Source: a virus. Taken from it: a DNA stretch of 64,000 nt. The stretch is taken from positions 1 to 64,000 of the IMG/VR virus record IMGVR_UViG_3300033156_000312; one strand, 5' to 3'. Shown piece by piece: positions 35,380 through 36,766 of this stretch. Position 1 is the first letter of the stretch. Each line of letters begins with the position of its first letter. The position numbers were made by a program, and so were the translations under genes. Below the pieces are notes generated by a model, which was not told the DNA's origin, searched no databases, and saw only the letters and a list, made by a program, of their open reading frames with translations.

Positions 35380-36386
35380 AAAATATTGTTTATGCCCCAG
35401 GAGTTTTCGATATGCTTCATATTGGACATATTCAATATCTTCAAAAAGCAAAAACTCAAGGAGATTATTTAATTGTAGGAGTGCAAAGTGATAAAGGTGT
35501 AGAATCTATGAAAGGAACGAAACCTATTCTATCTGAGAATATAAGAATGCAAACAATAAAAGCTTTAGAATGTGTAGATGATGCTTTTATATATGAAGAT
35601 ACTAATTATATATACCATGCAAAAAGAGCAAATGCTAAAATATTTTGTTTATCTACTCAACATAAAGAAGCTGAACGTTTTAAAGAATTAGTCAAATATA
35701 TGAGAGACATAGGAGGGAAAATAGTATATATCTCTCATATGAAAGGTATATCTTCTACTGCGATTAAAGATAAAGTTAAAAATGAATGGAAATCTGTTTG
35801 GGAAAGAGTCGCCTCTTCTGATAAAAATGATATAGAAGTAAATGGAGGATATAATCAAATAGGAGAAAAAAATGCTGTTAAATTAGCATTATACTTAACT
35901 GATAAATTTGCAATTAGACAAGAAGATAAAGTTTTAGATTATGGGTGTGGAAGTGGAATTATTTTACAGAAATTAAGATGTCAAAAATATGGTATAGATA
36001 TATCTCCCAGCATGATAGAAAGAGCTATCAAAAATAATCCATCTGGACTTTTTGCTGTTGGAGATGATATAATAATGAGAGGACATTATAATTATATTAT
36101 TTGTCATGGCACTGTTCAATATTTCTCTAATACTGTTTACGCTTCTCATATTTTTTTAGAGATGAAGCGTTATGCAGACTGTGTAATTATTTGTGATATT
36201 CCTGACGAAGCAAAAAAAGAACAACGAGAGAGGTATAGAAGAGAACGAGGAATGAATTCTTATCCCCCTCATTTATATTATTCTCGTGAGTTTTTTAGAA
36301 ATTTAGATTTTGAAACTTTTGACAATGAAATATCGATAACAAATAATAAAAATTACGGTTTTTATGCAGTGTGGAGACGAAAATGA
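35376..36386 (+). CDS. TagD/RfaE-like cytidylyltransferase fused to a class I SAM methyltransferase
   Basis: GVFDMLHIGH, LIVGV.SD and ISST; then VLDYGCGSG and GIDISPSM. Confidence 0.85.
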   Translation: MKNIVYAPGVFDMLHIGHIQYLQKAKTQGDYLIVGVQSDKGVESMKGTKPILSENIRMQTIKALECVDDAFIYEDTNYIYHAKRANAKIFCLSTQHKEAERFKELVKYMRDIGGKIVYISHMKGISSTAIKDKVKNEWKSVWERVASSDKNDIEVNGGYNQIGEKNAVKLALYLTDKFAIRQEDKVLDYGCGSGIILQKLRCQKYGIDISPSMIERAIKNNPSGLFAVGDDIIMRGHYNYIICHGTVQYFSNTVYASHIFLEMKRYADCVIICDIPDEAKKEQRERYRRERGMNSYPPHLYYSREFFRNLDFETFDNEISITNNKNYGFYAVWRRK

Positions 36387-36766
36387 TGCGTTATTGGTTA
36401 TTTATAGGACGTTGGAGTCCTTTTCATAATGGACATAAGTATATAATAGATAGTTATGTCAATACAGGGAAACCAGTCTGTATTGCTGTGCGAGATAGCA
36501 AAGAAAAATATTCTACTGCATTAAGAAAAATGATGATTGAAGCTGTTTATAAGAAAGAAATTGAAGAAGAACGAGTAAAAGTCATTATTATTCCTGATAT
36601 AGAAGGAGTTGCAGTTGGAAGAAAAATTGGATATTCAATCATTCAAGTTCCTGATAAAATTAAAAATATTTCTGGAACAAAAATCAGAGCTGGACAATTA
36701 AATGATGTTCCTTCAGAAGTGCAAAAAATTTTAGATGAATGGAAAAAATATAACGAATCTCGATAA
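36383..36766 (+). CDS. Small HxGH nucleotidyltransferase (candidate minimal ATP sulfurylase)
   Basis: GRWSPFHNGH, VGR.IGY and ISGTKIR...VP.EV. Confidence 0.7.
   Translation: MMRYWLFIGRWSPFHNGHKYIIDSYVNTGKPVCIAVRDSKEKYSTALRKMMIEAVYKKEIEEERVKVIIIPDIEGVAVGRKIGYSIIQVPDKIKNISGTKIRAGQLNDVPSEVQKILDEWKKYNESR

Follow-up and report, generated by a model that had tools for sequence, protein, structure and literature searches.

Where does the adenosine 5'-phosphosulfate (APS) come from in a phage that carries an APS kinase and a sulfotransferase and no recognisable sulfurylase? Sulfate activation is carried out by two known types of enzyme, Sat and CysDN. The question is raised by a stretch of 64,000 nucleotides (the window), positions 1 to 64,000 of the IMG/VR virus record IMGVR_UViG_3300033156_000312, in which a small open reading frame (ORF) encoding a 127-residue HxGH nucleotidyltransferase (NT) stands ahead of both genes. 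The source record measures 82,045 bp and is 87% complete by CheckV, and over its whole length there is no match to Sat (PF01747) or to CysD (TIGR02039); CysN was not searched separately. An earlier note on this DNA had described the lack of sat and cysDN in the window, the same gene order and the motifs GRWSPFHNGH, VGR, ISGTKIR and VP.EV, all of which are present in the translation, and had proposed that the protein is a stripped-down Sat. We use the name mini-NT for the large unnamed family to which the protein belongs. Judging from sequence comparisons, we think it fairly likely that mini-NT is a third, miniature kind of ATP sulfurylase, responsible for the first step of sulfate activation. 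The genes in question are the following, PAPS being 3'-phosphoadenosine 5'-phosphosulfate.

36383..36766, + strand: mini-NT, HxGH nucleotidyltransferase and candidate sulfate adenylyltransferase of 127 residues, recognised by motifs, conservation, model and linkage to the APS kinase CysC.
36802..37590, + strand: sulfotransferase of the PAPS type, 262 residues, matching Sulfotransfer_1 (PF00685, 58.9 bits) and PF13469 (47.1 bits).
37587..38330, + strand: APS kinase CysC, 247 residues, matching PF01583 (186.8 bits) and TIGR00455 (209 bits, cut-off 138.7).

The mini-NT ORF is a real gene and not a chance frame, because it has 137 near-length homologues at E<=1e-3 and 584 representative clusters at the same threshold in an exhaustive, length-unbiased search, because 17 columns are nearly invariant in an alignment of 76 members, and because its AlphaFold2 model reaches a mean pLDDT (predicted local distance difference test) of 96.4, with a pTM (predicted template modelling score) of 0.89. 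Read from its ATG the protein begins MMRYWLFIGRWSPFHNGH. The longer frame, 36371..36766 (+), opens with GTG, and an alternative ATG at 36386 would give 126 residues and fits the usual MKYxLFIGRW start of the homologues. The ATG at 36383 overlaps the TGA of the upstream cytidylyltransferase-methyltransferase gene (35376-36386) as ATGA, and mini-NT is translationally coupled to that gene. Downstream, the sulfotransferase lies between mini-NT and CysC, and the end of its frame shares 4 bp with the start of CysC. It contains KCGTTS and RNPITRSYS, which we take to be the 5'-phosphosulfate-binding (5'-PSB) and 3'-phosphate-binding (3'-PB) motifs for the cofactor.

The nearly invariant positions of the family are G9, R10, H15, G17, H18, R37, I70, P71, D72, G79, R80, V82, G83, Y84, S97, T99 and R102, with H15, G17, H18, S97, T99 and R102 conserved in at least 90% of the 76 members. 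The window protein carries GRWSPFHNGH at residues 9-18, VGR at 78-80, ISGTKIR at 96-102 and VPSEV at 110-114. These include the HxGH and ISxTxxR-type motifs of the superfamily (H15-N-G-H18 and I96-S-G-T-K-I-R102), and with HxGH and SGTxxR both kept the protein appears catalytically intact. A domain of 110-130 residues with the signature GRWxPFHxGH, IRD, IPDI, GRxVGY and ISGTxxR characterizes the family, and the window protein has every element of it. Its closest relatives (P0001 and P0002) are 92% and 88% identical. Against CTP_transf_like (PF01467) it scores 19.9 bits, below the gathering cut-off of 21, which is passed by its relatives P0259 (33.9 bits), P0284 (29.8 bits) and several further homologues. 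Searching GenBank phages by tblastn with the window protein gave no match, and the same search with a marine-phage relative (L113) returned 12 records of kinase-NT fusions and 10 NadM-type matches. The cultured-phage relatives are kinase-NT fusions of 243-248 residues annotated as 'kinase', 'adenylylsulfate kinase' or 'hypothetical', and their carriers are the Xylella phages Salvo, Sano and Bacata, the Xanthomonas phages AhaSv and Seregon, the Stenotrophomonas phages DLP_6, Bhz60 and Suzuki, and Clavibacter phage 33. In phrog_10255, named 'kinase', positions 133-226 match mini-NT and positions 2-88 match the window CysC; PHROG 10255 is therefore a fusion family. We found no description of mini-NT in the full-text literature searched, which misses most subscription journals.

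The evidence that carries our reading is the company this family keeps. All 56 of the longer mini-NT homologues match PF01583. CysC fusions make up 121 of the 319 fetched homologues (61 NT-CysC and 60 CysC-NT) and 66 of the 150 best representatives of the 584 clusters (47 CysC-NT and 19 NT-CysC); whole fusions run to about 260-330 residues, about 110-125 of them in the NT domain. On a FastTree phylogeny of 305 NT domains, a rough tree of about 110 columns, at least 40 changes of architecture are needed; with the labels shuffled the mean is 108 and the lowest value 99. This count leaves out fragments that span fewer than 85 residues of the query, and 14 long proteins of the 'NT only' kind carry no label in it. 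Fusion and fission have therefore happened repeatedly. A search for related loci with a 12-row mini-NT alignment as query gave a similar picture. In 62 of 72 genome loci CysC is part of the same protein, in 4 it is adjacent and in 6 it was not seen, one of the six (L018) having the NT at a contig end; the genomes belong to Omnitrophota, Planctomycetota, Saccharibacteria, other candidate phyla, DPANN archaea, Chlamydiia, Acidobacteriota, Saprospiraceae and others. In the viral loci, the best 80 of 299 confirmed relatives, a CysC-family kinase is fused in 9, lies within 300 bp in 51 and within 3 kb in 15, and is not seen in 5, although one of these five (L099) does have an adjacent PF01583 kinase. 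Many of the marine-phage kinases are short (about 145 residues) and divergent, with PF01583 still their best family at 37-133 bits (cut-off 21.1). The linkage to cysC on which the earlier note had made its proposal depend is thus found, fused or adjacent, in the great majority of loci. Mini-NT very probably works with CysC. Since it is nearly always accompanied by an APS kinase or fused to one, the first step of sulfate activation is probably its task. Complex prediction for the CysC domain with mini-NT scored 0.00 in both runs, which has no bearing either way.

After CysC, the most recurrent neighbours are sulfotransferases. When the genes called up to 5 kb away in 115 dereplicated loci were clustered and the top 20 clusters named by Pfam, clusters 1, 3, 10, 14 and 15, present in 18, 11, 7, 5 and 5 loci, were of this kind, those numbered 3 and 15 being weak matches. 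Hidden Markov models (HMMs) of these clusters and of the two window sulfotransferases detect such a gene no more than 5 kb away in 27 of the 67 dereplicated genome loci and in 12 of the 48 viral ones, a count that is too low, since in one locus (L080) they overlooked two Sulfotransfer_2 genes. The top 20 clusters included no NAD-salvage family and no glutamine-kinase-like or amidohydrolase partner.

Does mini-NT stand in for the known enzymes in the genomes that carry it? We surveyed 50 of the 72 carrier genomes, leaving out 22 mostly short-contig loci. Sat is present in 4 of the 50 and CysD above its cut-off in 6, and 7 more have a CysD-like protein that matches strongly though below the cut-off (190-228 bits), one of them together with Sat; in 34 of the 50 neither Sat nor a CysD-like protein was found. 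Given that NadD is above its cut-off in 31 of the same genomes (34 at E<=1e-10), incompleteness alone does not explain the gap. In an even sampling of 201 Omnitrophota genomes, 6 carry mini-NT, always as a CysC fusion; PF01583 is found in 94, of which 3 with partial matches only were set aside, Sat in 39, and CysD or a CysD-like protein at E<=1e-40 in 71. Among those with a full CysC, Sat or a CysD-like protein accompanies it in 73 of 85 genomes without mini-NT and in 2 of 6 with it (Fisher p 0.008, a test that overstates independence because the six carriers may be close kin). In one carrier that has Sat (G012), the Sat gene adjoins a second CysC. Together, the linkage to CysC and the occurrence where Sat and CysDN are not found give good support from comparative genomics to the idea of a route from ATP through APS and PAPS to a sulfated acceptor, and they favour the reading in which mini-NT supplies the APS.

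The Omnitrophota sample holds some further observations. A sub-cut-off class of CysD-like proteins at about 185-198 bits, covering model positions 1-204 (for example G070:C11:2441-4995 and G064:C7:21466-24023), adjoins frames of about 610 residues with N-terminal partial matches to the APS-kinase P-loop, often with a full CysC a few kb away; these pairs are probably divergent CysDN. A frame of 4,570 residues (G122:C2:101269-101469) has a marginal mini-NT-like match (E 2.5e-12), the seventh Omnitrophota match, and an open frame of 37,731 residues (G017:C3:40180-44451) contains two NadD-like matches.

If mini-NT makes APS, what kind of protein is it? The structural model best matches nicotinamide mononucleotide (NMN) adenylyltransferases (NMNATs) of archaeal type. 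Foldseek places it first with the enzyme of Methanothermobacter thermautotrophicus (1m8k; E 1.9e-4, query TM-score 0.70), and VIA-align with that of Methanocaldococcus jannaschii (1f9a, MJ0541; Z 12.8, root-mean-square deviation (rmsd) 3.3 A, 122 residues aligned), followed by phosphopantetheine adenylyltransferase (PPAT; 4nah, second-best, Z 12.5), with NadM (2qjo) at Z 11.6. All 18 chains with Z>=8 are adenylyltransferases of the HxGH superfamily, with the Rossmann-like nucleotidyltransferase fold. Sat chains score lower: 1v47 Z 8.8 (rmsd 3.0 A, 118 aligned), 2gks 7.7, 1j70 6.2 and PAPSS1 (1x6v) 6.0. Foldseek against BFVD gave no match to the model at E<=0.001. In accordance, the family profile matches 1f9a with E 1.7e-14, profile positions 9-81 corresponding to 1f9a 4-76 and positions 90-133 to 1f9a 110-157. 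Against a Sat profile built from 12 Sat domains of genomes, hhalign gives a probability of 45% (E 2.2e-4) over 57 columns. The Sat motifs FQTRNPxHRAH and VGRDHAG are not found; mini-NT has GRWSPFHNGH and VGRKIGY in their place, in which the Arg stands one residue farther away from the first His, the Gln-Thr, the Asn and the DHAG are lacking, and the Gly-Arg is kept. A trimmed Sat was rejected on the hhalign result, on Sat Z scores no higher than 8.8 and on PF01747 not being among the Pfam matches of the window protein at E<=0.01. Because the match to 1f9a in profile and fold is strong and that to the Sat profile weak, the comparisons place mini-NT as a shortened archaeal-type NMN adenylyltransferase and not a shortened Sat.

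By sequence, the family derives from such an NMNAT through loss of its middle segment. The 33 residues 77-109 of 1f9a, which presumably carry the nicotinamide-contacting residues, correspond to 8 residues with an invariant Gly-Arg in mini-NT, and where NMNAT has GSAQ following strand 2, mini-NT has (I)RD(T/S), whose Arg is invariant. Two arginines, R37 and R80, are thus nearly invariant in mini-NT and absent from NMNAT. Both PPAT and glycerol-3-phosphate cytidylyltransferase use the position after strand 2 to bind the phosphate that attacks.

These features suggest how the protein could work. To bind ATP, mini-NT would use the HxGH and ISGTxxR elements that the superfamily shares, and sulfate, in place of NMN, would attack the alpha-phosphate of ATP to give APS and pyrophosphate. 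Two family-specific arginines would hold the sulfate, R37 from the stretch that follows strand 2 and R80 from the Gly-Arg loop; their placement relative to the HxGH site is taken from predicted secondary structure. The phage CysC, encoded two genes downstream, would then phosphorylate APS to PAPS, and since CysC uses up APS, we propose that the unfavourable first step is pulled forward. Finally, the sulfotransferase at 36802-37590, and perhaps also the one at 39533, would use PAPS to sulfate a glycan built by neighbouring transferases. The choice of sulfate as substrate, the roles of R37 and R80 and a physical coupling to CysC are what we infer. Of the proposals in the earlier note, the making of APS stands in so far as CysC linkage and the frequent failure to find Sat or CysDN favour it, and is qualified by the closer kinship to NMNAT and PPAT and by a chemistry deduced from sequence; the description as a stripped-down Sat gives way, as profiles and fold group the protein with PPAT and the archaeal NMNAT/NadM enzymes and tie it to Sat only weakly. 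The claim that the pathway runs entirely from phage genes was overstated, for sulfate uptake and the removal of pyrophosphate and of 3'-phosphoadenosine 5'-phosphate (pAp) would be left to the host or to genes not identified here.

Several observations weigh against an ATP sulfurylase. In both sequence and fold mini-NT is nearer NMNAT and PPAT than Sat, and one may ask if it is still an adenylyltransferase for NMN or nicotinic acid mononucleotide, serving to make or salvage NAD, perhaps in partnership with a kinase of nucleoside type, as NadR does. Besides NMNAT and NadM being the best sequence and fold matches, some members are named NMNAT by the Joint Genome Institute (JGI). In Xylella phage Salvo (L165; NC_042345.1, 4233-6324), the 248-residue fusion of an APS-kinase-like domain and mini-NT, annotated 'kinase', lies in an early-gene region and adjoins a gene with a NADAR domain (89.6 bits), with a sulfotransferase neighbour only below threshold (Sulfotransfer_4-like, 20.1 bits against 22.8). 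These neighbours leave room for a role related to NAD or ADP-ribose in that branch, and the Salvo type may do something else. For the family as a whole we regard this explanation as highly improbable. The archaeal NMNAT profiles score far below their cut-offs (NF002243 33.7 against 127 bits, TIGR01527 24.8 against 181.2 bits, over residues 6-77 only), and the 33 residues that in NMNAT link the DIE motif to the GY strand are missing. Most carriers already own an NAD adenylyltransferase, given NadD in 31 of the 50; NAD-salvage families do not appear among the recurrent neighbours, and wherever tested the partner kinase belongs to the CysC family.

The survey itself supplies further points on the same side. 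Sat or a CysD-like protein is also present in 16 of the 50 carrier genomes, so mini-NT is not always the sole candidate source of APS, and 12 Omnitrophota genomes with CysC have neither mini-NT nor Sat nor a CysD-like protein; all carrier genomes are metagenome-assembled genomes (MAGs) of unstated completeness. In addition, no CysC is seen nearby in 6 of the 72 genome loci and in 4-5 of the 80 viral loci. The presence of Sat or a CysD-like protein in those 16 genomes would suit an accessory to CysC that binds ATP, APS or PAPS, for regulation, stabilisation or another step of APS or PAPS handling, with the APS itself coming from the host, on whose supply a phage could draw. Fungal Sat provides an example of a sulfate-activation domain turned regulatory. 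We find this very unlikely, considering that all catalytic motifs of the superfamily are nearly invariant across 76 diverse members and that no other source of APS was seen in 34 of the 50 carrier genomes.

Campylobacter jejuni offers the third alternative. Its Cj1415 is, we assume, a CysC homologue. Cj1415-Cj1418 make CDP-phosphoramidate 3'-phosphate (PMC11800397), a precedent that counts for a mini-NT that makes some other adenylyl-X or cytidylyl-X, X being a phosphate ester, a phosphoramidate or the like, which the CysC-family kinase would 3'-phosphorylate to a PAPS-like donor other than PAPS. Many phage kinases beside mini-NT are indeed divergent and short, with PF01583 scores of 37-65 bits, and in the window mini-NT is coupled to a cytidylyltransferase-methyltransferase gene. 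Against this, the window kinase is well above the APS-kinase equivalog cut-off (209 against 138.7 bits) and is flanked by genes of sulfotransferase families; across the family sulfotransferases are the commonest other neighbours, even beside divergent kinases such as that of L099, and the glutamine-kinase-like and amidohydrolase partners are missing from the top 20 neighbour clusters. We therefore consider such a donor unlikely, and prefer a mini-NT that supplies APS to CysC.

Two other domains recur around this putative APS-PAPS module, and we count both as further ties to the handling of PAPS in favour of our reading. DUF2061, a small two-helix membrane domain, recurs with mini-NT and CysC; it is fused to the N-terminus of CysC in L073 (10372-10596, 26.8 bits) and L075 (10354-10560, 49 bits) and to the C-terminus of mini-NT in P0274 (residues 157-207), and is encoded as a separate gene nearby in L074 (6782-7057). 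The window CysC has a hydrophobic, DUF2061-like N-terminal extension of about 75 residues (37587-37811). Its likeness to DUF2061 is drawn from relatives, since Pfam finds no match in its own first 75 residues; by BLASTP it aligns to the CysC of L073 from residue 43. A membrane anchor and a link to sulfate uptake are possibilities for the role of the domain. The second, a weak match, is a phosphoesterase-like domain of the DHH/DHHA1 type, fused to mini-NT in the 432-residue P0259 (DHHA1 23.6 bits, cut-off 25.9), and a weak DHH-like gene also follows CysC in L073 (11431-12294, 19.5 bits, cut-off 28.1). DHH enzymes of the NrnA type hydrolyse pAp, the by-product of sulfotransfer.

In the window, the three genes belong to an operon within a phage glycan cluster, whose other members are these.

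35376-36386, + strand: fusion of a cytidylyltransferase (HldE domain II / TagD-like; PF01467, 65 bits) with an S-adenosylmethionine (SAM) methyltransferase.
38335-38952, + strand: HNH endonuclease ORF (PF01844, 22.1 bits), between CysC and LicD.
38952-39536, + strand: LicD gene, by family match, 2.5 kb downstream of mini-NT.
39533..40162, + strand: possible second sulfotransferase of 209 residues, a weak match (PF17784 Sulfotransfer_4, E 1.5e-4, 22.1 bits, cut-off 22.8).
40159-40725, + strand: match to GT29 (sialyltransferase), 188 residues, 33.8 bits over residues 19-65 only.

The product of 39533..40162 is a possible second user of PAPS, and the cytidylyltransferase-methyltransferase and LicD together suggest that the same glycan is decorated a second time, with a phospho-alcohol.

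Taken as a whole, these observations can be drawn into one picture: a third, independently evolved class of ATP sulfurylase, derived from NMNAT by deletion of the NMN-binding insert and addition of two arginines, which with CysC and DUF2061 forms a membrane-tethered minimal PAPS synthase, the sole sulfate-activating system of many phages, candidate-phyla bacteria, DPANN archaea, Omnitrophota and Planctomycetota. For this picture in full we hold the chances to be evenly balanced. If mini-NT is indeed a sulfurylase, it is a third type at one-third the size of Sat, and an enzyme of the NAD pathway re-tooled for an inorganic anion. Readings of sulfur assimilation and sulfation capacity from genomes would then change, many MAGs and phages scored as having CysC without a sulfurylase would become complete, and phages with sulfotransferases would be seen to supply their own donor. 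It would also offer a very small part for the production of PAPS in vitro or in engineered cells. Phages of the Salvo type are culturable systems in which the family can be studied.

How does mini-NT compare with systems already known? Closest in sequence and fold are archaeal NMNAT and NadM (1f9a; 1ej2 of M. thermautotrophicus; NadM 2qjo), with which it has in common GRxxPFHxGH, the (P)DIE after strand 3, the GY strand and SGTxxR. Mini-NT is about 40 residues shorter, and its genomic partners are CysC and sulfotransferases and not NAD genes. An analogy of logic is found in CoaD/CoaE and human COASY, where a small HxGH adenylyltransferase is followed by a P-loop kinase. In that pathway the CoaE-type kinase phosphorylates the 3'-OH of the adenosine. 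The partner kinase of mini-NT is of the CysC family, whereas that of PPAT is CoaE, and scores to the PPAT family are negligible (NF001985 19.8 bits, cut-off 104). In the O-methyl phosphoramidate pathway of C. jejuni (PMC11800397), a nucleotidyltransferase and a CysC-like kinase also yield a 3'-phosphorylated nucleotide donor; that pathway needs a glutamine kinase and an amidohydrolase, which are not among the recurrent neighbours of mini-NT, where sulfotransferases recur instead.

Sat (PF01747; 1v47 of Thermus thermophilus, 1j70 of yeast) belongs to the same HxGH superfamily and catalyses the reaction proposed here. Like mini-NT it fuses with or adjoins CysC, and both alignments have a Gly-Arg after strand 4 and SGTxxR. 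Mini-NT is one-third its size and has no N-terminal domain, no QTRNP and no DHAG, and falls outside the Sat family. Finally, bifunctional PAPS synthases (PAPSS1 1x6v; the Aquifex Sat-CysC 2gks; CysNC) join an activating domain and an APS kinase in one chain, and the fusions of mini-NT with CysC follow the same logic in both domain orders. In the known synthases the activating domain is Sat or CysN/CysD, whereas in the mini-NT fusions it is of NMNAT ancestry; in the window, unlike in either, mini-NT and CysC are separate genes with a sulfotransferase between them.

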